A stretch of 63,329 nt of DNA, the filler included, from Nitrospirae bacterium MYbin3 (GTDB lineage: Bacteria; Nitrospirota; Thermodesulfovibrionia; Thermodesulfovibrionales; Dissulfurispiraceae): the NCBI GenBank assembly GCA_002753335.1. It is 15 parts of 15 records of this genome, joined end to end, with 100 filler letters (N's around TTAATTAATTAA, not from the genome) between each part and the next. Parts side by side here need not be neighbours in the genome. Positions count along the whole stretch, not along the records: positions 14,542 to 21,172 come from PEAD01000052.1; 14 more parts are not named here. One strand, given 5' to 3'. Shown piece after piece: positions 10,805 to 35,548 of the stretch. Numbering within the stretch: the first letter of the stretch is position 1; each line of letters opens with the position of its first letter. Under the pieces are notes generated by a model. That model had not been told where the DNA came from. It saw only the letters and a program-made list of their open reading frames with translations, and ran no database searches. Made by a program: the position numbers and the translations under genes.

Positions 10805-13800
10805 CTACGGCGCCCAATACTGAGCAAGCACCTGCTGCGTTTCCTGAGGTTTTTGCTGTATGGCCTCGCTCCAGCTGCTCAGGTTGTTGCTTGCTGTAAA
10901 CGTGGCCATCGCCTGTATGAGCTGGCTTACCTGTGTATTCATAAGATGGCTGCCATTTGCAGCTTTGAATGTTTCGGTCTGGTACGCTGTTCCTGAATAC
11001 CAGCTTTGTACACTAACTAGATCTGTTGTGTTATATAGTGATACATTCAGGTTATTGCCAGAAGTAGCGAAGATCAGATCCAAAGGGTTGACGTCAAACT
11101 GCACAATATCTGAATTGCCGACTGTCGAATCATTGTCGGTGATGGTGTCTTGCCCGCCGCCTTTGTTGAATATGTACGTGTCGTTGCCGGTACCACCGTT
11201 GAGAGTGTCGTTTCCTGTGCCGCCAATAAGCGTATCATTGCCTGCATTGCCTGTCAGGGTATTGTTAGCGCTGTTGCCAGTGAGTATGTTGTCAAGAGTA
11301 TTTCCTGTTCCATTGATGGCTGCAGTTCCTGTGAGCGTCAAGTTCTCTACATTGGCACCGAGAGTATAGGTTATCGAACTCTGAACCGTATCAGTACCCT
11401 CATTGGCATTCTCTGTGACTACGTCACCGGTATTGTCTACAACGTAGATGTCGTTGCCTGTACCGCCTTTCATTGTATCTGCCCCAGCTCCACCGTTAAG
11501 CGTATCGTTACCGGCATTGCCTGTAAGTGTATTGATGCCGCTGTTGCCAATCAGTATGTTATCAAGGGTATTGCCGGTTCCGTTTATGGCTGTTGTTCCA
11601 GTGAGTGTAAGGTTTTCTACGTTATTTCCAAGCGTATAGGTTATTGAGCTTTGGACAGTATCCGTTCCTTCGTTAGCGTTCTCTGTAACTACGTCACCGG
11701 TATTATCTACAACATAGGTGTCGTTGCCTGTCCCCCCGACCATGGTATCAGCGCCAGTTCCACCGCTTAGAGTGTCATTACCGGCCCCGCCTGTTAAAGT
11801 GTTTTTGGCAGTATTCCCTGTCAAAACATTATCAAGTGTATTGCCGGTTCCGTTTATGGCTGTCGTTCCGGTGAGTGTGAGGTTCTCTACATTATTTCCT
11901 AGTGTATAGGTTATCGAACTCTGAACCGTATCCGTACCTTCATTGGCGTTCTCGGTTACAACATCACCGGTGTTGTCCACAACATATATATCGTTGCCTG
12001 CTCCGCCGATCATGGTATCAGCGCCTGTTCCCCCACTTAATGTATTTGCCCCGCTGTTGCCCGTAATGACATTATTCAAAGTATTTCCTGTTCCGTTGAT
12101 GGCTGCGTTCCCTGTGAGCGTCAGGTTTTCCACGTTGGAACCGAGCGTGTAGGTGATTGAACTCTGAACAGTGTCAGTACCCTCATTGGCATTCTCTGTG
12201 ATTATGTCACCGGTATTATCTACAACGTATATGTCGTTGCCTGCTCCGCCTTTCATAGTATCCGCGCCAGCGCCACCGTCAAGCGTATCGTTACCGGCAT
12301 TGCCTGTAAGAGTGTTGATGCCGCTGTTGCCAACCAGTATGTTGTCCAGGGTGTTTCCCGTTCCATTGATGGCTGTCGTTCCAGTGAGTGTCAGGTTTTC
12401 TACATTATTGCCAAGTGTGTAGGTTATCGAACTCTGAACAGTGTCTGTGCCTTCATTAGCATTCTCTGTGATTGCATCACTTGCATTGTCCGCAACATAG
12501 ATGTCGTTGCCTGCACCGCCAATCATCGTATCTACTCCGCCGCCGCCGTTTATCGTATCATTGCCTATATTGCCGGTAAGGGTATTGTTGGCGCTGTTTC
12601 CTGTGAGTACGTTGTCAAGTGTATTGCCGGTACCGTTGATGGCCGCAGTGCCTGTAAGCGTCAGGTTCTCTACATTGGCACCAAGCGTATAAGTTACTGA
12701 GCTCTGAACGGTGTCTATTCCCTCGCTGACATTCTCTGTGATGATATCTCCGATGTTGTCAATAATGTACGTATCATCACCAAGTCCGCCAATCAGGGTG
12801 TCGGCTCCGGCTCCGCCATCCAGAATATTCATTGCAGCATTACCGGTCAGAGTGTTGTTTAAAGTGTTGCCCGTTGCGTTTATTGCAGAAGTTCCGGTAA
12901 GGATCAGATTTTCGACGTTAGAGCCAAGTGTGTAGGATACCGTGCTTTGTACTGTGTCCGTGCCTTCGTTAAGGGCTTCCGTCACAATGTCTCCGGCATT
13001 ATCTACGATATACAGGTCGTCTCCAAGGCCGCCGACCATCGTGTCAACACCAGATCCGCCGTCAAGCGTATCATTACCCGCATTTCCTGTAAGAGTGTTG
13101 TTGGCGCTGTTACCGATCAGAACATTGTTCGAGGCGTTGCCGGTGCTATTTATAGTCGAAGAGCCGGTGAGGGTAAGGTTTTCAACATTACTTCCAAGCG
13201 TATAAGTTGCAGAGGAATAAACGGTATCAGTTCCTTCATTCGTGTTTTCGATGACAGCGTCGGATGTATTGTCTACGATGTAAGTATCATTGCCTACTCC
13301 ACCGGTCATTGTATCGGCCCCGGCTCCGCCATCAAGAACATTATCAGATCCGTTGCCGGTCAAAATGTTATTCAAACTATTGCCTGTGCCATTATTTGAA
13401 GAGCTGCCCGTAAGTGTAAGATTTTCAATATTTGCCCCGAGCGCATATGAGATTGAGCTTTGAACCGTGTCCGTCCCTTCGTTTGCATTTTCTATAATCG
13501 CGTCTGATACGTTGTCCACAATGTATGTGTCATTGCCAAGTCCACCGGTCATTGTGTCGATTCCTGTGCCGCCATCAAGAAGATTGTCGTAACTATTGCC
13601 GGTTATTGTGTTGTTTAGTTCATTGCCAGTGCCGTTTATGGCGGCAGTGCCGGTCAGCGTCAGGTTCTCAATGTTAGAACCGAGGGTATAAGTTATCGAA
13701 CTTTGCACCGTATCAATACCTTCATCACTAGCTTCAGTTACGACATCTCCGACGTTGTCCACTGCATATGTGTCATCTCCCGCTCCGCCAGCCATAGTAT

Positions 13801-14441
13801 CCGCGCCGGTTCCGCCGTTTAAAATATTTGCAGCACTGTTGCCAACCAAAGTATTATTCAGGTCATTGCTGGTGCCGTTTATTGCGGAATTACCTGTCAG
13901 GGTCAAATTCTCTATGCTTGCCCCAAGCGTATAAGTGACAGAACTTTGAACGGAATCTGTGCCTTCATTTCCCCATTCGTTAATTATGTCGCCCGCGTTA
14001 TCGACAATATAGGTGTCATTTCCCCAACCTCCAGCCATCGTATCAGCGCCTGTTCCACCATCCAAAATATCATTTCCGGAGTTTCCATAAAGGTTATCAT
14101 TTCCACCGAGACCGTTAAGCACAATGCCATCCCCGTATCCTCTGAGCGTATCATCAGCTTCGGTACCGGTCACGTGTCTTGTCATATCTTCAAGAATGCT
14201 CGATGTCCATACGGTTCCATCTGCAAACCTTACCTGCTCCACTTTGCTGTTGGCCCAATCGAAGTAGCTTTGTACGGCCAGTGTATCGGTTGTCCCGTTG
14301 ATGGACAGGTTGAGATTGGAGGCATTTCTCGTTACCGTTATGTCGTTGGGTGTAATGTCCGGTGCCATCTCTATGGTGTCAGTATCCAAGAGTGTTGTGT
14401 CGTAGTCCACAATGGTGTCCTGTCCGCTGCCCCTGCCGAAC
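10805..14441 (-). CDS. Large RTX/hemolysin-type Ca-binding T1SS substrate (5'-truncated)
   Basis: Dozens of GGxGxDT repeats; C-terminal [11 protein letters not shown]...LAQYWAP secretion-type tail; the frame is open to the contig edge. Confidence 0.92.
11200..14060 (-). repeat. 11 imperfect intragenic tandem units of about 81-90 aa ([44 protein letters not shown]...)
   Basis: I counted 11 [IV]ENL[TI]LTG motifs in the translation; boundaries are approximate. Confidence 0.85.
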
Positions 14442-14542
14442 NNNNNNNNNNNNNNNNNNNNNNNNNNNNNNNNNNNNNNNNNNNNTTAATTAATTAANNN
14501 NNNNNNNNNNNNNNNNNNNNNNNNNNNNNNNNNNNNNNNNNT

Positions 14543-14737
14543 CTGCAACAGCTGCTTGAGGCTGTTTCGAAATATTCTGGAGAGGCGTCCGAAGGAGAAG
14601 AAATAAGCAGGAGAAAAGATGCGGCTGCTGCTGAATTCATCTCTCTGTTTGTCAACAACAAAGGGCTTGAAGATATGATTCAACAAGTGCAGACCAAACT
14701 GAGTGAAATAAAAGAAATGGCTGGTAAACTGTCATGA
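14543..14737 (+). CDS. Helical protein C-terminus, probable magnetosome protein Man5 (5'-truncated)
   Basis: Manual translation LQQLLEAV...QTKLSEIKEMAGKLS*; its TGA overlaps the ATG of the next gene. The Man5 name rests on position only. Confidence 0.45.
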   Translation: MQQLLEAVSKYSGEASEGEEISRRKDAAAAEFISLFVNNKGLEDMIQQVQTKLSEIKEMAGKLS

Positions 14738-15930
14738 AACAGGAACAGACGAGCTATTCAACGAGCGATATGCTCAAGCTGATCAACACCGCGGCGGGCA
14801 ACCTTGTTTTGAGAAAGAGCAAGGTTTCACTTGAGGCGCAGATTCGCAGGCAGCAGGCTGAGTGTGATTATACGAGGGAGCTGCTTACAAGGGCCCGGAA
14901 GATGGTCTCCGGACTTGATCCCGAGATAGTTGCGGCAGAAAAAAGGGCCCGTGAATCAAAAGAACGACTGATGTTGCTTAAGTCTGAGCGTGAGGCATTG
15001 GCAAAGGAGCTTGAGGGCCTCAGGGCAGTAGCAAGAAAAGTTGAAATGCTGAAACAGATAACAGGCAAGGCAGCCACCTTGCGTGAGAGCGTGGAGGCAT
15101 TGCAGAAAAGTCATGACCATGCTCTTTCGTTGCAGAAAGAGAAAAGGGTTTTAAAAGAAGAGATTTCCAGAGAGAGCAATAAAGCTGTTGCTGCGGTGCA
15201 GGAACTAAAGGGAAAAATCGGCGCTGTGCGTGCTTCTCAGGATCGGATTATCGCCCGTCTCTCGGGTTTTGATATTTCGTCCTATATCGCGAAGATTCAA
15301 AAAGATGTGGATGATATGGCAGCGCGTCTGCAGTCCAAGTCTGATGCGATGTCTGTAGAGGAGGAGATAAATCTTCTGGTTGCCTGCCTACAGCAGGCGC
15401 GCAAAACGGATGACATAAGCAGAATATTTGAAGAGACGAGCGCAGAAGAGATGAAGATGTTTGCGGATTTTGCCAAAATCAAGGAAAGCGGTGTTCTTTC
15501 GAGCATCAAGGCAGAGATAAAACGGATGATAGCCTCATTCGATTCATCTGTGCGCAAGGAGCTTTCTTCGCTTGAGGAGAGGAAGCATCTGCTTGACAGC
15601 AAACTCGAAATAACTGAAGAGAGATTGTCCGGGTTGAAGGCCGGTATGGCGCAGACAGAGCAGGAGATAAAGAGCGAGCAGGAGTTCAGGGCCCGTTCTC
15701 AAGCCACCATAAACAAGCTTGAAGAGGACAGCAAGACACAGGCAGCAGAACTCGACAGGCTGAAAAAAGAAGAGGAGCGGGTACATCTGGAGATGGAGTT
15801 CAACAAGGTGTTTATAACCTCTGTTGGCCCCTCGATCGAATATTTGAAAAACATGAACAAGAAGTTGAGCAGCGTTTTTGAGGGCTGCAAGGCAGCATCT
15901 AATAAACTGGCAGGAGCGGTTAAGAAATAG
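14734..15930 (+). CDS. man6: Long coiled-coil (SMC-like) protein, probable magnetosome protein Man6
   Basis: Heptad-rich along its length; immediately upstream of the TauE (mamO-Cter) gene, as in Nitrospirota magnetosome clusters. Confidence 0.55.
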   Translation: MKQEQTSYSTSDMLKLINTAAGNLVLRKSKVSLEAQIRRQQAECDYTRELLTRARKMVSGLDPEIVAAEKRARESKERLMLLKSEREALAKELEGLRAVARKVEMLKQITGKAATLRESVEALQKSHDHALSLQKEKRVLKEEISRESNKAVAAVQELKGKIGAVRASQDRIIARLSGFDISSYIAKIQKDVDDMAARLQSKSDAMSVEEEINLLVACLQQARKTDDISRIFEETSAEEMKMFADFAKIKESGVLSSIKAEIKRMIASFDSSVRKELSSLEERKHLLDSKLEITEERLSGLKAGMAQTEQEIKSEQEFRARSQATINKLEEDSKTQAAELDRLKKEEERVHLEMEFNKVFITSVGPSIEYLKNMNKKLSSVFEGCKAASNKLAGAVKK

Positions 15931-15935
15931 AAAGC

Positions 15936-16856
15936 ATGAAGAAAAACAAAATTTTAATTCTTGGTTTTATCTGTATCTCTCTGGCGCTGGCAACAGTGTG
16001 CGGAAACAGTGCGCATGCCGCAGTATCAGAGCCCACGCATATTCCGATTATGAGCTCCCTTGATGCTCTGATAGTGATAATAACCGGAGTTGCGATAGGT
16101 GCGATAGGCACTCTGGTTGGAGCCGGGGGCGGATTCCTGCATGTTCCGATCCTGCTTATTTTTTACGGCTTCTCGCCGCTGCATGCTATAGGCACCTCAA
16201 CCGTGGCTGTTTTCCTTAATGCCCTGTCCGGAACCTTCTCCTACATTCATCAGGAGCGGATAGATTACGAACTGGGCGTAAAGTTCGCGGTCTTTGCTGT
16301 GCCGGGTGTTTTCATGGGCTCGCTTACCGCCCAGTATTTTAACACTATCGTATTTTCGCTTCTTTTGGCTGCGGTGCTAATGGGCTTATCCTACAGCCTG
16401 CTTTTTTTAAGGCATCTCAAGCTTGTTTGCGCAAATAGTGAGGAAACTGTTCAGACCCGTGTTATAAAGGATTCGGTTGGAGGTGTGCATACATACTCTC
16501 CTGATCTGTCGATCGGGTATGGAGGAAGTTTTCTGGTCGGAATTGTTTCGGGCCTCTTCGGCATAGGCGGCGGGTTGATTCATGTGCCTATGATGAACTT
16601 TATAGGCATACCTATTCATATTGCTGCCGCAACATCACATTTTATCATCACCATCACCAGTTTTTTTGGAATACTTATTTTTATAGGACTAAAGGCGATA
16701 GATTTCGACTATGCGATATTTTTGGGCGTGGGCGTTATACTCGGCGCTTATTACGGTGCGAGGCTGTCTATGCTTGCGTCATCAGAGCTTATTAAAAAAA
16801 CAATTGCCGGTCTGCTGTTGATTGTGGCTGGCCGCTTGATAGTGGGGATTCTATAG
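15936..16856 (+). CDS. mamO: TauE/SafE-family membrane protein, probable MamO-Cter
   Basis: Two G[AI]GGG...VP TauE repeats and multiple TM helices; lies between coiled-coil and HEAT-repeat genes. Confidence 0.7.
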   Translation: MKKNKILILGFICISLALATVCGNSAHAAVSEPTHIPIMSSLDALIVIITGVAIGAIGTLVGAGGGFLHVPILLIFYGFSPLHAIGTSTVAVFLNALSGTFSYIHQERIDYELGVKFAVFAVPGVFMGSLTAQYFNTIVFSLLLAAVLMGLSYSLLFLRHLKLVCANSEETVQTRVIKDSVGGVHTYSPDLSIGYGGSFLVGIVSGLFGIGGGLIHVPMMNFIGIPIHIAAATSHFIITITSFFGILIFIGLKAIDFDYAIFLGVGVILGAYYGARLSMLASSELIKKTIAGLLLIVAGRLIVGIL

Positions 16857-16863
16857 ATATAAG

Positions 16864-16886
16864 AGGTTCTTGCAATGCAAGAACCT
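16864..16886. promoter_or_regulatory. Perfect inverted repeat AGGTTCTTGCA-A-TGCAAGAACCT (operator or RNA hairpin)
   Basis: 11-bp arms with a 1-nt centre, read directly; no U-tract follows on either strand. Confidence 0.6.
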
Positions 16887-16942
16887 TAAAAAGTAAAAAG
16901 TAAAAAGTAAAAAGTAAAAAGTAAAAAGTAAAAAGTAAAAAG
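16887..16942 (+). repeat. Simple sequence repeat (TAAAAAG)x8 running into the RBS of mad23
   Basis: Eight exact heptamers; the last supplies part of AAGGAG, which lies 8 nt before the ATG at 16954. Confidence 0.97.
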
Positions 16943-16953
16943 GAGAACACACT

Positions 16954-18462
16954 ATGGAACAAGAAACAGCGGTAGAACAGAAGAGGACCGGATTTTTGGG
17001 CGGAGTAGCATCAACTATCAATTTCGGAGGCAGAATGGTTGTAAAGACCTATGATCTGGCTTCGAGCGTTGTCGGAACAGCGGCAGACGTTGTGGGAAAG
17101 GGCGCCGGCGCAGTAACATCCACCGCCCCATGTTTCTTCGGCAAGACAAAGGACCTGCTTACCGGCGGGTTCAGGAAAATCTTTGGCAGCAACGAAAAGA
17201 GCGAGCTGAGGTCAAAGATTTCTGAGTACGAGGAAAAGATCAAGAACCTCTATTATGAAATAGGCAAAGAGGGGTCGCACGCAGAAAAAGTTGAATCAGA
17301 AAAGGTTCTGGAACTAATCGGCAAGGTCAGAGACTTTGAGCAGGAGATACAGAGACTCAACACCCAGATTGCAGAGATGAGCGAGCTTGAGGCGTTGCGC
17401 CGCGAAGAGGCAAAACAGGAAAAGGCGAAACCGGCCAAGAAGGTCAAGCTATCGGATGAGCAGGCAGCGGCAGCGGTAAAGGCAGCGATAGATAAGTCCA
17501 TAAAGCATGGTGAGTTTGATTCCGAAAGCCAGAGAGAGATATTTAAAAAGATAGCAAGCGACCTCCTCGATGATGAGATGGAGGTCAAGATATTGGCAGC
17601 CGCAGAGTTGGGCAAGATGGGCGTTAAGCCTGCGGTCGAGATTCTTTTAGAGGCTGTGAAGTTCGAAAATGTTTATTTGGATGCAGAAATAGTAAACGCG
17701 CTGACCAATATCGGCGATGCGAGGGCTATTGGGCTCTGCAAAGATATGGCAAAAAGCCCGAACCACAGGGCGCGTGTCAGCAGCCTGAGGGGCTTGTATA
17801 AGATGGGCTCTGACAGTGAAATAGCGCCTTATCTGCTTGAGGCGCTAAATGACGAGCATCCTGAAGTGCGCAAGAACGCGGCTACTTTCCTCGGATGGAA
17901 GGACATAGCCGATTCTCTGCCCGGACTTGTCCAGACCCTTCAGGACAAGGATGAGTCTGTGAGAAAGGCGGCTGTTACTGCGCTTGCGAACATCAAGGAC
18001 ATATCTTCGGTTCTCCCTCTGATGCGCACCCTTTCGGACGAAAGCATCGATATACGTCGGAAGGCGGTAGAGGCGCTGAAGACGATCACAGGCGAGGAGA
18101 TTAATTTTGATGTTGAACTGCAGGGCAGGTCGTTGACAAACGCCGTTAATAATCTGAAAGACTGGTGGCAGAGCGAGAGGATCAGCAGTATAGATGTTCA
18201 GATAGCCCCTGAGCCTGTTGCCGTATCAGAAAACACAGTGGTGGAAACGGTGTCTGAAACTGCGGCAGAAGTTGAAGCAGAAGTTGAAGATGCCGAGGCA
18301 GAAACTGATGATGAATCAGCATCGACAGAGACCTTCAGAGAGGAAGAGCTGAAACGCAAACTTAAAGGTGAGCTCATAACACTCTGTCTGAATGCGGGCC
18401 TGGAATGCGATGAAACATTAACAAAGGCAGAGTTGATACAGATGCTTTTGAGCAAAAAATAG
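16954..18462 (+). CDS. mad23: HEAT-repeat protein, probable magnetosome protein Mad23
   Basis: N-terminal coiled coil, PBS/HEAT repeats (EVRKNAATFLG, SVRKAAVTALA), acidic linker; synteny with mamO-Cter and three coiled-coil genes. Confidence 0.75.
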   Translation: MEQETAVEQKRTGFLGGVASTINFGGRMVVKTYDLASSVVGTAADVVGKGAGAVTSTAPCFFGKTKDLLTGGFRKIFGSNEKSELRSKISEYEEKIKNLYYEIGKEGSHAEKVESEKVLELIGKVRDFEQEIQRLNTQIAEMSELEALRREEAKQEKAKPAKKVKLSDEQAAAAVKAAIDKSIKHGEFDSESQREIFKKIASDLLDDEMEVKILAAAELGKMGVKPAVEILLEAVKFENVYLDAEIVNALTNIGDARAIGLCKDMAKSPNHRARVSSLRGLYKMGSDSEIAPYLLEALNDEHPEVRKNAATFLGWKDIADSLPGLVQTLQDKDESVRKAAVTALANIKDISSVLPLMRTLSDESIDIRRKAVEALKTITGEEINFDVELQGRSLTNAVNNLKDWWQSERISSIDVQIAPEPVAVSENTVVETVSETAAEVEAEVEDAEAETDDESASTETFREEELKRKLKGELITLCLNAGLECDETLTKAELIQMLLSKK

Positions 18463-18478
18463 ACAGGGGAAGAACGCA

Positions 18479-19024
18479 ATGGTGAAGAGCGCGGAAGAGC
18501 TTACGAACTACAGAGAAGCCCTGCTTGCCGAGAAGGATTCGCTTCAGAAGGATATTGCTGAGGTTGAAAACATTAACTACGAGCTTTTAAGGCAGATCAA
18601 GGAGCTCGAACTGCAGATGCTGGAGAGGAACAAGACCGCGAGGGAACTCTCTTCAACCCTGCATGAGGTTAAGAAGAGTCTTGTCAGGTTTGTTACCGAA
18701 GAGAGCAACCTTAATTCAGAAATGGATATGCTCGAGGCCGAGAAGGGCAGGATTATTGTCTCGTATAACCAGATGTCCCACGAGTGCGGTGACAATATAT
18801 CGAACCTTGGCGGCACTATCCTGAAGATAGACTTTATCAAGGGAGAGATCGAGGCTTTGAAGGCCAAGATCGGCATGACCGAGAAAGAGGCGAGCGAGGA
18901 GTTCAGCGAGCTGGACTCTATCGAAAAGAAGTTCACGTGGGCCTCGAAGTCTTTCACCGAGCTTTTTGATGAGATGAAAGATATAGAAAAAGGCATAAAG
19001 ATTAAATATTACACAAAGGAGTAA
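18479..19024 (+). CDS. mad24: Coiled-coil protein, probable Mad24
   Basis: All-helical heptad pattern; directly follows the mad23 candidate. Confidence 0.6.
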   Translation: MVKSAEELTNYREALLAEKDSLQKDIAEVENINYELLRQIKELELQMLERNKTARELSSTLHEVKKSLVRFVTEESNLNSEMDMLEAEKGRIIVSYNQMSHECGDNISNLGGTILKIDFIKGEIEALKAKIGMTEKEASEEFSELDSIEKKFTWASKSFTELFDEMKDIEKGIKIKYYTKE

Positions 19025-19026
19025 CT

Positions 19027-19752
19027 ATGGAACAGGACGGCAGACAAGTGAGCGACGATGCGTCTGAAGGAGTTGAGGTAAAAGATTGCCCGGATAAAGA
19101 GGGCGGCGATACTTCTGAAGACTGCGCTTTTGCGGCATCCGGTGATCTGGTCGTAAGGGATATTTCGGAGATGAAGGTTCTGGACAACCTGAAGACCGAA
19201 GTCGATACCCTTGACGTTGGAAAGACCATCAAAGACCTTTTTACGAGCATGCAAAACATGGATGTTCAGCTTAACAGCGTCCTTGCTATTAATGCGGCCC
19301 TTGAAAAGGACATAAAGGCCTCCAAGGATGTTATCGCGAAGTTTAAGGCAGAGAGGGATGAGCTTGAACAGACGGTCGTCACGCTCAGGGAAGAGATGCC
19401 TTCAAAGAGGGAGCTAAAGGCAGAGATAGCGCACCTGATCGATGAGCGCAATGAAGCACAAGCTTCAATACGCAGCATGAAGATAGTGGTTGACAAGACC
19501 CTGACCGAATCCAAGGATTTGAGAAACAAGGTGGCTGACCTTGAGAACGAAAAAGCTGACCTGCTGAGGGATATCAGCTATATCGAGCTTAAGCTCAATG
19601 CCGCGCTCGAGAAGCTTAATCTGTATGCAAAGGAGATTACAACTCTTCAGGGCGAGAAGGTGAGCAATCAGGAGAAGATCGATTCTCTTCGCCTGAAGTA
19701 CGACAAGTGCGTTGAAGAAAAAACTGCGCTTCTTGCCGGTAAAAATTTATAG
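19027..19752 (+). CDS. mad25: Coiled-coil protein, probable Mad25
   Basis: Acidic N-terminus then a long coiled coil (QLNSVLAINAALEKD...EMPSKRELKAE); synteny. Confidence 0.62.
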   Translation: MEQDGRQVSDDASEGVEVKDCPDKEGGDTSEDCAFAASGDLVVRDISEMKVLDNLKTEVDTLDVGKTIKDLFTSMQNMDVQLNSVLAINAALEKDIKASKDVIAKFKAERDELEQTVVTLREEMPSKRELKAEIAHLIDERNEAQASIRSMKIVVDKTLTESKDLRNKVADLENEKADLLRDISYIELKLNAALEKLNLYAKEITTLQGEKVSNQEKIDSLRLKYDKCVEEKTALLAGKNL

Positions 19753-19765
19753 GAGGATTATAGCG

Positions 19766-20107
19766 ATGAGCGATAATGGAAATACTCAGACAATGGCTGC
19801 AGAAGCAGAAGTTATTATAAAGGATGAGCCGAAGCAGCAGGATGTAAGCGCCAAGGCAACAACCGAAGCGTTGCAGGAGCCCAAAAAGGATTGGAAGAAA
19901 TCATTCGGCCATGCGGTCCATGAGACAGGAGTGGTGGCGGCCAAGACCGTTGCCGGCGTAGGCGTAGGCGCTGTTGCTGGTGTAGGCGCTGTAGTGGCGA
20001 TAGCAATCGCTGAGGTGACGCTTCCGGCGCTTATGGTATTGAAGATCTGCAGCTTTGCGGGCGGAGCCTTGGGTTTTCTGAAGGGTATAGATAAAAAGCA
20101 GAAATAG
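19766..20107 (+). CDS. Small membrane protein with Gly/Ala/Val zipper, inside the mad cluster (113 aa)
   Basis: AGGAGG RBS at 19751 favours the ATG at 19766; contains AGVGVGAVAGVGAVVAIAI and FAGGALGFL hydrophobic segments. Confidence 0.7.
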   Translation: MSDNGNTQTMAAEAEVIIKDEPKQQDVSAKATTEALQEPKKDWKKSFGHAVHETGVVAAKTVAGVGVGAVAGVGAVVAIAIAEVTLPALMVLKICSFAGGALGFLKGIDKKQK

Positions 20108-20122
20108 AGGGGCATAATAATT

Positions 20123-20719
20123 ATGGAAAAAGATAAGGAAAATAACCCTAAATCCTTCTTTTCGGCAAAGACCGAGACCGCAACAGCGCGTGAGATAAAA
20201 GAGCTGACGCATGATGTGCGGGAACTGAGGGACCGGAAATATTCTGTCGAGAATGAAAGCAAGAATCTCAGCGGCCAGCTCGAGAAGCTGAAGGCCGAGA
20301 TTGCGGGCGCGGATGTGGTTATCTCGGCCCTGAAAAATGACATACGTATTTCACGTGCCAGGATAGAGGGGTATCCTGAACTTCTAGCAGAACTTGAGTC
20401 CAAGAAGGATGCGCTTATCAGCGAGATTAACCGCTGCCAGTCGGGCATAAAGACCACGACAAAAAACATAAAAAACTTTCTGACGATGAGAGGCCACCTT
20501 GAGAGGGAGTTGATGAATATCATCAACGAGAAGGCGATCGTGATAAAGAAGCTGCGGGACATGGAAAACGGGGTCCGCATGGTCGCAAACAAGAAGTCCG
20601 AGAAGATGCCGCACCTGAAGGAGTACGATATGTTTCTCCAGCAGCTGTCAAAGGTCTTCAGAGAAGTCGAGAACCGCATGGATGTGTCCATAAAGTTTTC
20701 GACAAAAAAGATGTCCTGA
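20123..20719 (+). CDS. mad26: Coiled-coil protein, probable Mad26
   Basis: Coiled coil ending ...EVENRMDVSIKF; last of the mad23-26 block by position. Confidence 0.58.
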   Translation: MEKDKENNPKSFFSAKTETATAREIKELTHDVRELRDRKYSVENESKNLSGQLEKLKAEIAGADVVISALKNDIRISRARIEGYPELLAELESKKDALISEINRCQSGIKTTTKNIKNFLTMRGHLERELMNIINEKAIVIKKLRDMENGVRMVANKKSEKMPHLKEYDMFLQQLSKVFREVENRMDVSIKFSTKKMS

Positions 20720-20746
20720 AATTTTCGAATAAAGAGAGATTAGATT

Positions 20747-21148
20747 ATGCAATTAGGAGAGATGGAAGCGGTCAGCAATTTCTGCGCAAGGGTTTCGGCG
20801 GTGCTGTTTATTATTGCGAACGCGTATTACCCTGCGCGCGTGATTGCCAGAAAGTTCACCACATGGACAAGTGAGACAACGCTTTTTTTCAGACGCTACA
20901 TGAAAGCCCATATAACGCTTAACCTTATCGCGTTTCTCGCCTTGATTGTGCATGCGCACTGGGCAGAAGAGCGGAATTTCATCCTTACTTCCAGCGCTAT
21001 AGTAACTGTTATCCTGACCATCGAGGGAGTCCTTATGCACTTTCGTGTAATGCCGGATTCTCGTAAACATCTGCGCCTGCTTCATACTCAGCAGGCGCTT
21101 GTAATATTATGGATTGTGTTGATCGTGGCCGGACACCATATGGTATAA
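20747..21148 (+). CDS. Four-TM His-rich membrane protein, cytochrome b / ferric-reductase-TM-like
   Basis: Four hydrophobic helices; H55-x13-H69 in TM2, and H113 and H130/H131 flanking TM4. Confidence 0.55.
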   Translation: MQLGEMEAVSNFCARVSAVLFIIANAYYPARVIARKFTTWTSETTLFFRRYMKAHITLNLIAFLALIVHAHWAEERNFILTSSAIVTVILTIEGVLMHFRVMPDSRKHLRLLHTQQALVILWIVLIVAGHHMV

Positions 21149-21272
21149 AAACTTTTAACCACAGAGCACTCANNNNNNNNNNNNNNNNNNNNNNNNNNNN
21201 NNNNNNNNNNNNNNNNTTAATTAATTAANNNNNNNNNNNNNNNNNNNNNNNNNNNNNNNNNNNNNNNNNNNN

Positions 21273-34124: not shown

Positions 34125-35548
34125 GCAGCCTCCATCGCAGATGCCAGCTCTCTTTCGAGAAATGTCCTGTAATTATTAAGACTAATTTCGTCTATCGCCT
34201 CGACCCTTATAACTATAACAGGCTGTGTATTGCTGGTCCTCACAAGCCCCCACCCTTTTTCAAAAAACACCCTGATTCCGTCTGTTGTATCTGTGGCGCT
34301 TATCCTGCAATCCGCGCTATCTGCGCCTATTAACGCCTTGAACTTATCCGCAACCTTTTCAACCACTCGTTTTTTCAGGCTGTCAGAACATTCTATCCTT
34401 ATCTCCGGAGTAAAACAAGCCTTAGGCACGCCTTCAAGGAGGCCTTTTACAGCTTTCCCTGTTTTTTTCATAATCTCGACGAGCCTCAATGTGGTGTAAA
34501 GCGCATCGTCATATCCGAAATAGCGGTCAGCAATAAATATGTGGCCGCTGAACTCCCCTGCAAGCAGCGCCTTTTCGTCTCTCATCTTCTGTTTGACCAA
34601 AGAGTGTCCTGTCTTCCACATTATAGGGTTGCCGCCGTGGGCTTTTATATCGTCAAACATGCGCTGCGAGCATTTCACATCGCCGATAATAGTCGCACCC
34701 GGCCTTTCTTTGAGCAAGGCGCGTCCGAGTATTATCATCAACTGGTCGCCCCATATGACATTGCCCTCATCATCAACAACGCCAATCCTATCGGAGTCGC
34801 CGTCATAGCCCACGCCTATGTCCGCGCCGCTCTTTTTTGTTTCTTCGATGAGATCTCTTATGTATTCCACAACCGTGGGGTCGGGATGGTGGTTGGGAAA
34901 GCTGCCGTCCGGCTCGCAATAAAGCTCTATCACATCGCAGCCTGCTGCTTTTAGTATTTCGGGGATAACAGTTCCTGCAGTTCCGTTGCCTGCATCAACA
35001 ACGACCTTCAGCCTTTTGAAATCCTGTGCGCCTAAGTAAGAAAACTGCTCAAACATATAACGCTTGTATTCCGATACCGCATCAAAGCTCTCAACGCTGC
35101 CTTTTAATGGAGCGTCCGCAGTAGCGTCGCTGAATATAATATCCTTCAACTCCTGAATATCCTTGCCATGAATAGTTTCTTTACCGATGCTTATCTTGAA
35201 GCCGTTGTATTCGGGCGGGTTGTGGCTTCCTGTAATCATCACCCCGCCGTCAAGATTCAGATGAAAAAGAGAGAAGTATTGAACCGGAGTTGGACAGACG
35301 CCTATATCAAACACATTAAGACCTGTCGAAACAATCCCTTCAATCAAACCTGAAGCAAGCTCGCCAGAGCTGTTTCTCACATCCCTGCCAACGCTCACGC
35401 GTTTGGCTTCCGTATTTCTGCGCATAAGCATAATACCGAAGGCACTGCCGATAGAGTACGCAACATCCGTGCTGAGCTCTTTGCCGACAATGCCCCTTAT
35501 GTCGTATTCCCTGAAAATATGCGGATTTATCATGCCAGAAGTTTTCAT
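34121..35548 (-). CDS. Phosphomannomutase/phosphoglucomutase (AlgC-like)
   Basis: FREYDIRG, TGSHNP, DGDSDR and GEFSGH. Confidence 0.95.
   Translation of the reverse strand: MKTSGMINPHIFREYDIRGIVGKELSTDVAYSIGSAFGIMLMRRNTEAKRVSVGRDVRNSSGELASGLIEGIVSTGLNVFDIGVCPTPVQYFSLFHLNLDGGVMITGSHNPPEYNGFKISIGKETIHGKDIQELKDIIFSDATADAPLKGSVESFDAVSEYKRYMFEQFSYLGAQDFKRLKVVVDAGNGTAGTVIPEILKAAGCDVIELYCEPDGSFPNHHPDPTVVEYIRDLIEETKKSGADIGVGYDGDSDRIGVVDDEGNVIWGDQLMIILGRALLKERPGATIIGDVKCSQRMFDDIKAHGGNPIMWKTGHSLVKQKMRDEKALLAGEFSGHIFIADRYFGYDDALYTTLRLVEIMKKTGKAVKGLLEGVPKACFTPEIRIECSDSLKKRVVEKVADKFKALIGADSADCRISATDTTDGIRVFFEKGWGLVRTSNTQPVIVIRVEAIDEISLNNYRTFLERELASAMEAA

Follow-up and report, generated by a model that had tools for sequence, protein, structure and literature searches.

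The stretch of DNA examined in this work (the window; 63,329 nucleotides (nt)) is from Nitrospirae bacterium MYbin3 (GenBank assembly GCA_002753335.1, here genome G000), whose assembly consists of 66 contigs and is 93.7% complete with 0.18% contamination. The window is made up of contigs chained by N spacers and, due to this, genes that are adjacent in it across a spacer are not genomic neighbours. Our subject is its positions 14542-21172, which are exactly one whole contig, C4 (G000:C4:1-6631; 6631 nt; PEAD01000052.1), and which an initial annotation had interpreted as the terminal part of a magnetosome gene cluster of the Nitrospirota type, a known kind of locus with which cells make the magnetite that serves them as an internal compass. 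The nine tightly packed and co-oriented open reading frames (ORFs) described by that annotation are all found on C4, on the + strand, in the order and of the character that it gave, although the small membrane ORF and the last ORF had been left without names, which can now be supplied (a Mad8-family gene and mad2, respectively). The spacing between the ORFs is from -4 to 27 nt, with a single exception of 97 nt ahead of the HEAT-repeat gene mad23. The features of C4, with positions in the window, protein lengths in amino acids (aa) and the basis of each name, are as follows.

14543..14737, + strand: man5, last 64 codons, a 64-aa helical fragment that is open at the 5' end (profile and position)
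14734..15930, + strand: man6, 398-aa coiled coil (named Man6 match)
15511..15567, - strand: 57-nt segment of man6, an inverted identical copy of which forms the last 57 nt of contig C20
15936..16856, + strand: mamO-Cter, 306-aa stand-alone TauE-family membrane transporter (Pfam TauE, position)
16864..16886, no strand: 10-base-pair perfect hairpin of putative role in the sole long spacer (mamO-Cter to mad23)
16954..18462, + strand: mad23, 502-aa HEAT-repeat and coiled-coil protein (named Mad23 match)
18479..19024, + strand: mad24, 181-aa coiled coil (named Mad24, reciprocal best)
19027..19752, + strand: mad25, 241-aa coiled coil (named Mad25, reciprocal best)
19766..20107, + strand: Mad8-family gene (ORF7), 113-aa glycine-rich membrane protein (profile matches in both directions)
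20123..20719, + strand: mad26, 198-aa coiled coil (named Mad26, reciprocal best)
20747..21148, + strand: mad2 (ORF9), 133-aa membrane protein with 8 histidines (named Mad2 match)

Terminator-like sites overall are at chance level (5 found vs 6.4 expected), and the promoter scan was also no better than chance.

A search with the HEAT-repeat protein returned 195 proteins, about 113 of which are near full-length relatives (33-75% identity), several of them named Mad23; an alignment of Mad23 retrieved 65 loci from genome_contigs, where a single Mad23 sequence retrieved none. Many of these loci are from genomes with Magneto- titles or from genomes treated in the literature as those of magnetotactic bacteria (MTB). 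Database names, obtained by exact sequence look-up, are available for 8 of 10 proteins of Candidatus (Ca.) Magnetominusculus xianensis HCH-1 (L021) and 7 of 10 of Ca. Magnetobacterium casense (L047). In the latter locus, mad23 lies in two frames (L047:10001-11651; 203 + 321 aa; cluster-mates 549 aa), which is either a sequencing error or a real frameshift. Six of the C4 ORFs are reciprocal best hits of the named proteins Man6, Mad23, Mad24, Mad25, Mad26 and Mad2, with identities of 25-48%. The lowest value is for Man6 (25% over 404 aa to HCH-1, E 6e-22, reciprocal best in the genome), whose match to Man6 of Ca. Magnetobacterium casense spans only 119 aa, and the highest for Mad23 (48% over 547 aa to HCH-1, E 7e-167), which is also 43% identical to Mad23 of a Desulfovibrionales genome. 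Mad24 (44% over 174 aa), Mad25 (43% over 219 aa) and Mad26 (34% over 164 aa, E 4e-34) are each reciprocal best, and Mad2, with 44% identity to the HCH-1 and 34% to the Ca. M. casense protein, is the sole match in the genome and has 'Mad2 family' as its top Atlas match (0.96). The expectation that MamO-Cter would be TauE-like and Mad23 would contain HEAT repeats is borne out by PF01925 (E 3e-45) and PF13646 (E 4e-25), respectively. MamO-Cter additionally shows a weak match to the C-terminus of the NCBIfam MamO model and 59% identity to the HCH-1 TauE gene located between man6 and mad23; its name was assigned by position (PMC8353452; here and below, published work is cited for parts of its text). 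The man5 fragment was placed by profile and position: a profile of 4 same-position proteins matches the C4 piece at positions 303-365 (E 2.5e-17) and a piece at the end of contig C20, comprising the first ~304 codons, at positions 1-304 (E 1.5e-55). The same profile matches the named Man5 of HCH-1 (E 2.9e-13), and HHalign against the Magnetobacteriaceae set gave 98.6%. Direct BLAST of the C4 piece against named Man5 gave nothing at E 0.01, nor did the named Man5 and the casense Man6 give a reverse match in the genome at this threshold.

The core genes, which the initial annotation suggested looking for elsewhere in the assembly, form a complete set (mamA, B, E, I, K, M, P and Q) on C20. The order on this contig is feoAB, an actin-like gene (Pfam Volactin; taken as mad28), a MinD-like gene, man1, mamK, man2, likely mad10, man3, mamP, mamM, likely mad31, mamQ-2, mamB, mamA, mamI, mamE, mamQ, man4 and the first part of man5, where mad10, mad28, mad29 and mad31 are named by position (PMC9376291, PMC8353452) and not by a named match. 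MamK (464 bits; NCBIfam cut-off 400) and MamM (425.5; cut-off 350) both pass; for MamB, A, I, P and Q the respective family is the best NCBIfam match yet below cut-off, and for the protein in the MamE position a DegP/HtrA protease model scores best and MamE second. The Mam proteins below cut-off are 50-69% identical to their HCH-1 orthologues, and MamP contains a magnetochrome domain. With Man1, Man2, Man3 and Man4 showing 41%, 48%, 51% and 21% identity to named proteins, man1 to man6 are all present across C20 and C4 (Man5 by profile only). In the man4-to-mad26 tail that had been proposed for C4, man5 through mad26 are indeed located there but man4 is on C20, outside the window.

When compared with a related locus (L011), the C20 part of Man5 stops at residue 319 and the C4 part starts there, and as the two halves are in register the two contigs should abut. 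The single ~19-22 kb region of the published cluster type is thus here on two contigs, in register inside man5, and the island measures at least about 38 kb and is attached to host genes. In comparison to the Nitrospirota man1-mad26 cluster (Ca. Magnetobacterium casense, Ca. Magnetominusculus xianensis HCH-1 and LBB01; PMC8353452, PMC9376291), all 23 listed genes are matched here (mad10 and mad31 by position only), and the order from man1 to mad26 is the same except for mad2. The distal order man5-man6-mamO-Cter-mad23-mad24-mad25-mad26 is kept, with one extra gene between mad25 and mad26, and here feoAB and mad28 lie on the same contig. The cluster of the Dissulfurispiraceae group (L011, L012, L013, L020, L031; PMC9376291) has the same order as here, including both departures, its Mad23 proteins are 55-68% identical to that of C4, and feoAB is near the main region in both; however, the interval between feoB and man1 contains nine genes here versus up to four in that group.

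Based on these results, C4 is very probably the terminal section of a magnetosome cluster of the Nitrospirota type that has its core mam genes on C20. It likely encodes a chain scaffold, along with two membrane proteins for crystal formation, in a bacterium that is likely magnetotactic. Several points weigh against this interpretation. All of the functions are carried over from Desulfovibrio magneticus RS-1, which belongs to another phylum, and Mad24 is unmentioned in the portions of the RS-1 study cited here (PMC12748827). The identity of Man4, Man5 and Man6 to named proteins is low (21-25% or by profile only), and coiled coils can match through composition. The C20-C4 join is inferred and not read through, and the terminus of C20 is the 57-nt inverted exact copy of man6 noted above. 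Lastly, host marker genes are absent from C4, and among 412 windows of the genome its tetranucleotide fit ranks only at the 9th percentile.

If the resemblance were due to composition only, C4 could be a generic operon of coiled-coil, HEAT and sulfite-exporter genes, and the Pfam and NCBIfam matches on C4, which are limited to TauE, HEAT and sub-cut-off coiled-coil or SMC-arm profiles, would be in accordance with this. However, this reading is refuted by the full-length matches to named magnetosome proteins (E 1e-19 to 1e-145), which are the best in the genome, by the conserved gene order and by the mam core on C20, and its probability is negligible. The expectation that automated annotation would hide the cluster holds for C4, but not genome-wide, because MamK and MamM on C20 pass curated NCBIfam cut-offs and whole-genome annotation would therefore flag the organism.

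The shortness of C4 (6.6 kb), its lack of a marker gene and its tetranucleotide fit could also indicate that it is a binning contaminant from some other magnetotactic organism, the binned host itself not being magnetotactic; in accordance with this, the sister species G067 (99% complete) shows no match to Mad23, MamK, Mad2 or the Mad8-family protein. However, the first genes of C20 (rarA and nagA, C20:1-2043) are 82% identical to those of the congeneric G067 and are in the same order, syntenic with C54, and the similarity ends directly after nagA (the DNA comparison covered C20:1-17500). In the tetranucleotide check that had been suggested, five C20 windows lie at the 32nd-70th percentile of the genome windows whereas seven foreign loci are at the 0-4th. 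Since C20 opens with housekeeping genes shared with the sister species and breaks inside man5 in register with C4, and man5 thus runs on from one contig into the other, contamination is very unlikely. Contig C9 was considered as the other end of the island, as its gene at 35262 follows nagA in G067, but this was rejected, since matches of 76-86% to G067 cover most of C9, and its site is therefore a rearrangement point.

The closest relatives of the C4 Mad23 likewise belong to the same family as the host. The family (f1) includes the genomes of L011, L012, L013, L020 and L031, the named ones of which fall in the Dissulfurispiraceae group (PMC9376291), and RpsC is 78-86% identical in 3 of these 5 genomes (the 3 in which it was found). 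In a Mad23 tree, which was a quick, single-gene and midpoint-rooted one of 66 rows, the C4 protein groups with the proteins of these five loci with 100% support in the Shimodaira-Hasegawa-like approximate likelihood ratio test (SH-aLRT), and this clade of six is nested inside Magnetobacteriaceae-type sequences. The nesting is in line with the published transfer model, of which it is not a test. The host thus belongs to the family that has published Dissulfurispiraceae magnetotactic genomes, and not to Magnetobacteriaceae; of the initial proposal of a magnetotactic Nitrospirota like Ca. Magnetobacterium, magnetotaxis is likely, but the relationship to Magnetobacterium does not hold.

Within the family, for which the counts given here include kin that are not independent and many incomplete genomes, Mad23 is found in 7 of 68 genomes (3 of the 48 of high quality) and MamK in these and one more (8/68); Mad2 and the Mad8-family gene have the same distribution as Mad23 (7 genomes). 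G000 represents genus g1, other carriers are from g5 and g11, and G067, the sole congener in g1, is without the cluster. Given its scattered occurrence in the family and the negative result for the sister species, which is 99% complete, the island has likely been gained or lost as a block. The patchy presence could also be viewed as a sign that the island is real but a decaying relic, in an organism that no longer makes magnetosomes, and man5 would indeed be broken if the inverted tip of C20 were genuine. However, all eight complete ORFs of C4 and the mam genes of C20 are open and full length when compared with their orthologues. Further, inverted copies of nearby sequence are also present at the starts of C5 (74 nt) and C8 (103 nt). 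Inverted contig tips are linked to DNA amplification, and because these two unrelated contigs have similar tips, that of C20 is read as an amplification or assembly chimera; all three tips likely stem from chimeric reads that entered the assembly. A relic is accordingly very improbable.

Three further observations concern clusters in this family. In genome G036 (L090, L091), a Mad8-family gene is present directly ahead of mamK, feoAB is right after mad23, mad2 is between mamB and mamA, and the long-branch Mad23 falls outside the six-genome clade; the different order and the outlying Mad23 suggest a second, independent acquisition in the family. Genome G066 contains a MamK above the NCBIfam cut-off (L092, G066:C61) that is only 45% identical, and no match to Mad23, Mad2 or the Mad8-family protein was found in it, so that it has perhaps another cluster type. 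The genome of L012 carries a further, incomplete copy of the cluster just upstream of man1 (L108, L087, L100), with mamA, mamI, mamE, mad2, a three-CxxCH MamP-like gene and a Mad8-family gene.

The first departure from the published layout concerns mad2. On C20, mamB and mamA are 14 nt apart and mad2 is not between them, whereas the sole Mad2 match of the genome follows mad26 on C4, and hence this is a change of order and not a loss. Among the 20 fetched loci that show its position, mad2 is directly before mamA in 16 and after mad26 in 4. These four loci, with L098 as a fifth, indicate that the move of mad2 is common to all six genomes of the clade; in G036, of the same family, mad2 is in the usual place.

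The second departure is ORF7, whose start codon was set by an exact database match and whose product consists of a charged N-terminus and a glycine-rich two-helix membrane hairpin, encoded between mad25 and mad26. It has 15 close unnamed relatives, a profile of which matches the small gene located before feoB in 13 Desulfobacterota loci, where the member from L059 is named Mad8. HHalign of ORF7 against Mad8 gave 96.8% over 60 columns, the reverse profile has ORF7 as its top match in the genome (E 1.2e-6; next 2.9), and at database scale a Mad8 orthologue scores E 4.8e-5 among 1.84 billion proteins. Both proteins have the motifs K-x3-G-x-G-x-G, A-x-A-E-V and G-G-A-x-G in the hairpin, and both are always inside magnetosome clusters in the genomes examined; however, the likeness is limited to the ~60-residue hairpin (21-26% identity), and unnamed subfamilies score higher. 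Based on profile homology in both directions, ORF7 is a member of the Mad8 family. Mad8 is its only named relative found, with many intermediate subfamilies in between and a different position (before feoB in Desulfobacterota, between mad25 and mad26 here), and hence strict orthology is not shown. A Mad8-family gene is present in 8 of 390 genomes of the class, inside a magnetosome locus at every place checked; it was found in none of the 10 further MTB genomes of Nitrospirota that were tested, for which completeness is not given. Two other identities were considered for ORF7 and rejected: it is not a moved man3, which is on C20, and it is not nearer to the gene upstream of mad8 (HHalign 3.8% vs 96.8%). 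Atlas gave no usable match for it (best 0.78).

In the published texts, Desulfobacterota are credited with mad1-9, and the Nitrospirota cluster is listed with no more than mad2, 10, 23-26 and 31 (PMC9840458); the gene order of the latter is described as conserved with one exception (PMC8353452). The name mad8 does not appear in the portions of the main text of PMC9376291, PMC8353452 and PMC12748827 that are cited here. Both departures are thus not found in these texts of the published layout, although figures or supplements may show them.

With regard to function, the chain module of RS-1 (Mad20/23/25/26 with MamK, Mad28 and Mad10; PMC12748827) is represented here by Mad23, Mad25, Mad26, MamK and likely Mad28 and Mad10. 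In contrast to RS-1, where Desulfobacterota genes are found in their place, man5 and man6 precede mad23 here, and mamO-Cter is inside the run. The RS-1 module has been tested by experiment, whereas the Nitrospirota proteins are known here from their genes. In RS-1, deletion of mad23 scatters the crystals, deletion of mad25 or mad26 leads to clustered or ring-shaped subchains, Mad25 binds both Mad23 and Mad26 strongly in two-hybrid assays, and the spacing and placement of the chain is by MamK and Mad28 (PMC12748827). By analogy with these orthologues, Mad23 would link crystals into subchains, and Mad25 and Mad26 would bind each other and Mad23 and keep the subchains straight, working with MamK, Mad28 and Mad10, all of which are on C20. 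The tauE mutants of RS-1 are without particles and its mad2 mutants make rare misshapen ones (PMC4287615), and hence an early role in the formation of magnetite would be expected for the TauE/MamO-Cter protein and Mad2. More tentatively, Man5, Man6 and Mad24 may be structural coiled-coil members of the same scaffold and not ATPases, and the Mad8-family hairpin may be a magnetosome membrane protein. Man6, Mad25 and Mad26 have been proposed as SMC-like ATPases (PMC9840458). However, no Walker A motif ([GA]x4GK[ST]) is found in Man6, Mad24, Mad25 or Mad26 of C4, and an ATPase role is therefore not supported for Man6, Mad25 and Mad26; the pattern occurs once in HCH-1 Mad25 and once in C4 Mad23 (residue 58), and the SMC matches of the C4 coiled coils are at mid-profile positions only, far below cut-off.

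Mad2 is essential for magnetism in RS-1 and is described in the literature as without an obvious or characterised homologue. In 42 aligned rows from several phyla, some of them cut by contig ends, His55 is conserved in 42, His69 in 37, His113 in 34, His130 in 36 and Gly129 in 40. The two pairs are spaced by 14 (His55-His69) and 17 (His113-His130) residues. The histidines that act as heme ligands are usually 13-14 residues apart, and the first spacing would fit this rule while the second would not. The non-magnetic mad2 alleles H101Y and G162S of RS-1 are 61 residues apart, as are the equivalents of His69 and Gly129 in 4 of 4 Desulfobacterota Mad2 proteins (residues 102 and 163 in one); we infer that the two mutated residues may be these equivalents, an assignment that is limited by RS-1 Mad2 not being among the 35 loci. 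The second Atlas match of Mad2 is a cluster called 'putative ferric oxidoreductase domain' (0.92). However, Pfam gave no match near cut-off to Ferric_reduct or cytochrome b561 for 25 + 10 proteins, HHalign against Ferric_reduct domains gave 0.4%, no better than controls and with only 3 template sequences, no match was found in the PDB, and no paper linking mad2 to a ferric reductase or cytochrome b was found in the literature; further, a simple hydropathy scan indicates only two helices, which counts against a four-helix di-heme protein. With less support than the chain functions, Mad2 may carry heme, as a di-heme cytochrome b, and may pass electrons across the membrane. A broader combined proposal is possible rather than probable, and is put forward tentatively: Mad2 would be a di-heme cytochrome of four helices with bis-histidine ligation, setting the Fe2+/Fe3+ balance across the membrane of the magnetosome in deep-branching MTB; the RS-1 alleles would affect one heme ligand and the glycine next to a second; in this clade, the gene would have been relocated to a site behind mad26 along with a Mad8-family gene, which is otherwise reported from Desulfobacterota only; and the island would carry a vWA-phosphatase-kinase signalling module of its own. 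Close relatives of Mad2 were also seen in nine records from Nitrospinota, Acidobacteriota and Geobacteraceae (L112, L113, L114, L126, L131, L132, L134, L138, L142), in most of which the gene is beside mamI, mamP, mad23, feoAB or other magnetosome-type genes.

Some other genes were observed on C20 and in the window. The island contains, on the - strand, a block of vWA, PP2C phosphatase, Ser/Thr kinase and FGE-domain genes (Pfam; G000:C20:4666-8364, L009), with a weak TerY match in PADLOC and a layout that we take to be TerY-P-like. Within the family, its kinase is confined to the six genomes that form this cluster clade (0 of the other 62), and it is found in 1 of 5 other MTB genomes, there on a different contig from mamK; the block is possibly an island-linked signalling or defence module. 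Ahead of man1 is a gene for a 386-aa protein with a coiled coil and a membrane anchor (G000:C20:21217-22377; L010:4718-5878), which has no Pfam match and shares 31% identity with the product of a gene in the corresponding region of L087, and which is a candidate for an unnamed magnetosome gene. Around the magnetosome genes (L009:2109-12184 and L010:1304-4161) there are also HDOD proteins, response regulators, PAS histidine kinases and a likely PIN toxin-antitoxin pair, all named by eye from the sequence. At window positions 10805-14410 (- strand), contig C2 encodes a 1201-aa RTX-like protein with glycine/aspartate calcium-binding repeats, which is truncated by the contig end and is not a genomic neighbour of the magnetosome cluster.

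The cluster type described here is a published one and the family is already known to hold magnetotactic members; because the family has published magnetotactic genomes, no newly recognised magnetotactic organism is claimed. The results document a nearly complete magnetosome island in a genus of which one other species has been sampled, and this species is without the island. The cluster of this clade can be told apart from that of Magnetobacteriaceae by two simple markers, the changed position of mad2 and the Mad8-family gene, and the latter, which is apparently lacking in the proposed donor group, needs explaining under the published transfer model. The histidine pattern of Mad2 may provide a testable lead for an essential gene without an assigned activity. 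In addition, the patchy distribution of the island within this family bears on the debate of whether magnetotaxis has spread by horizontal transfer or has repeatedly been lost.

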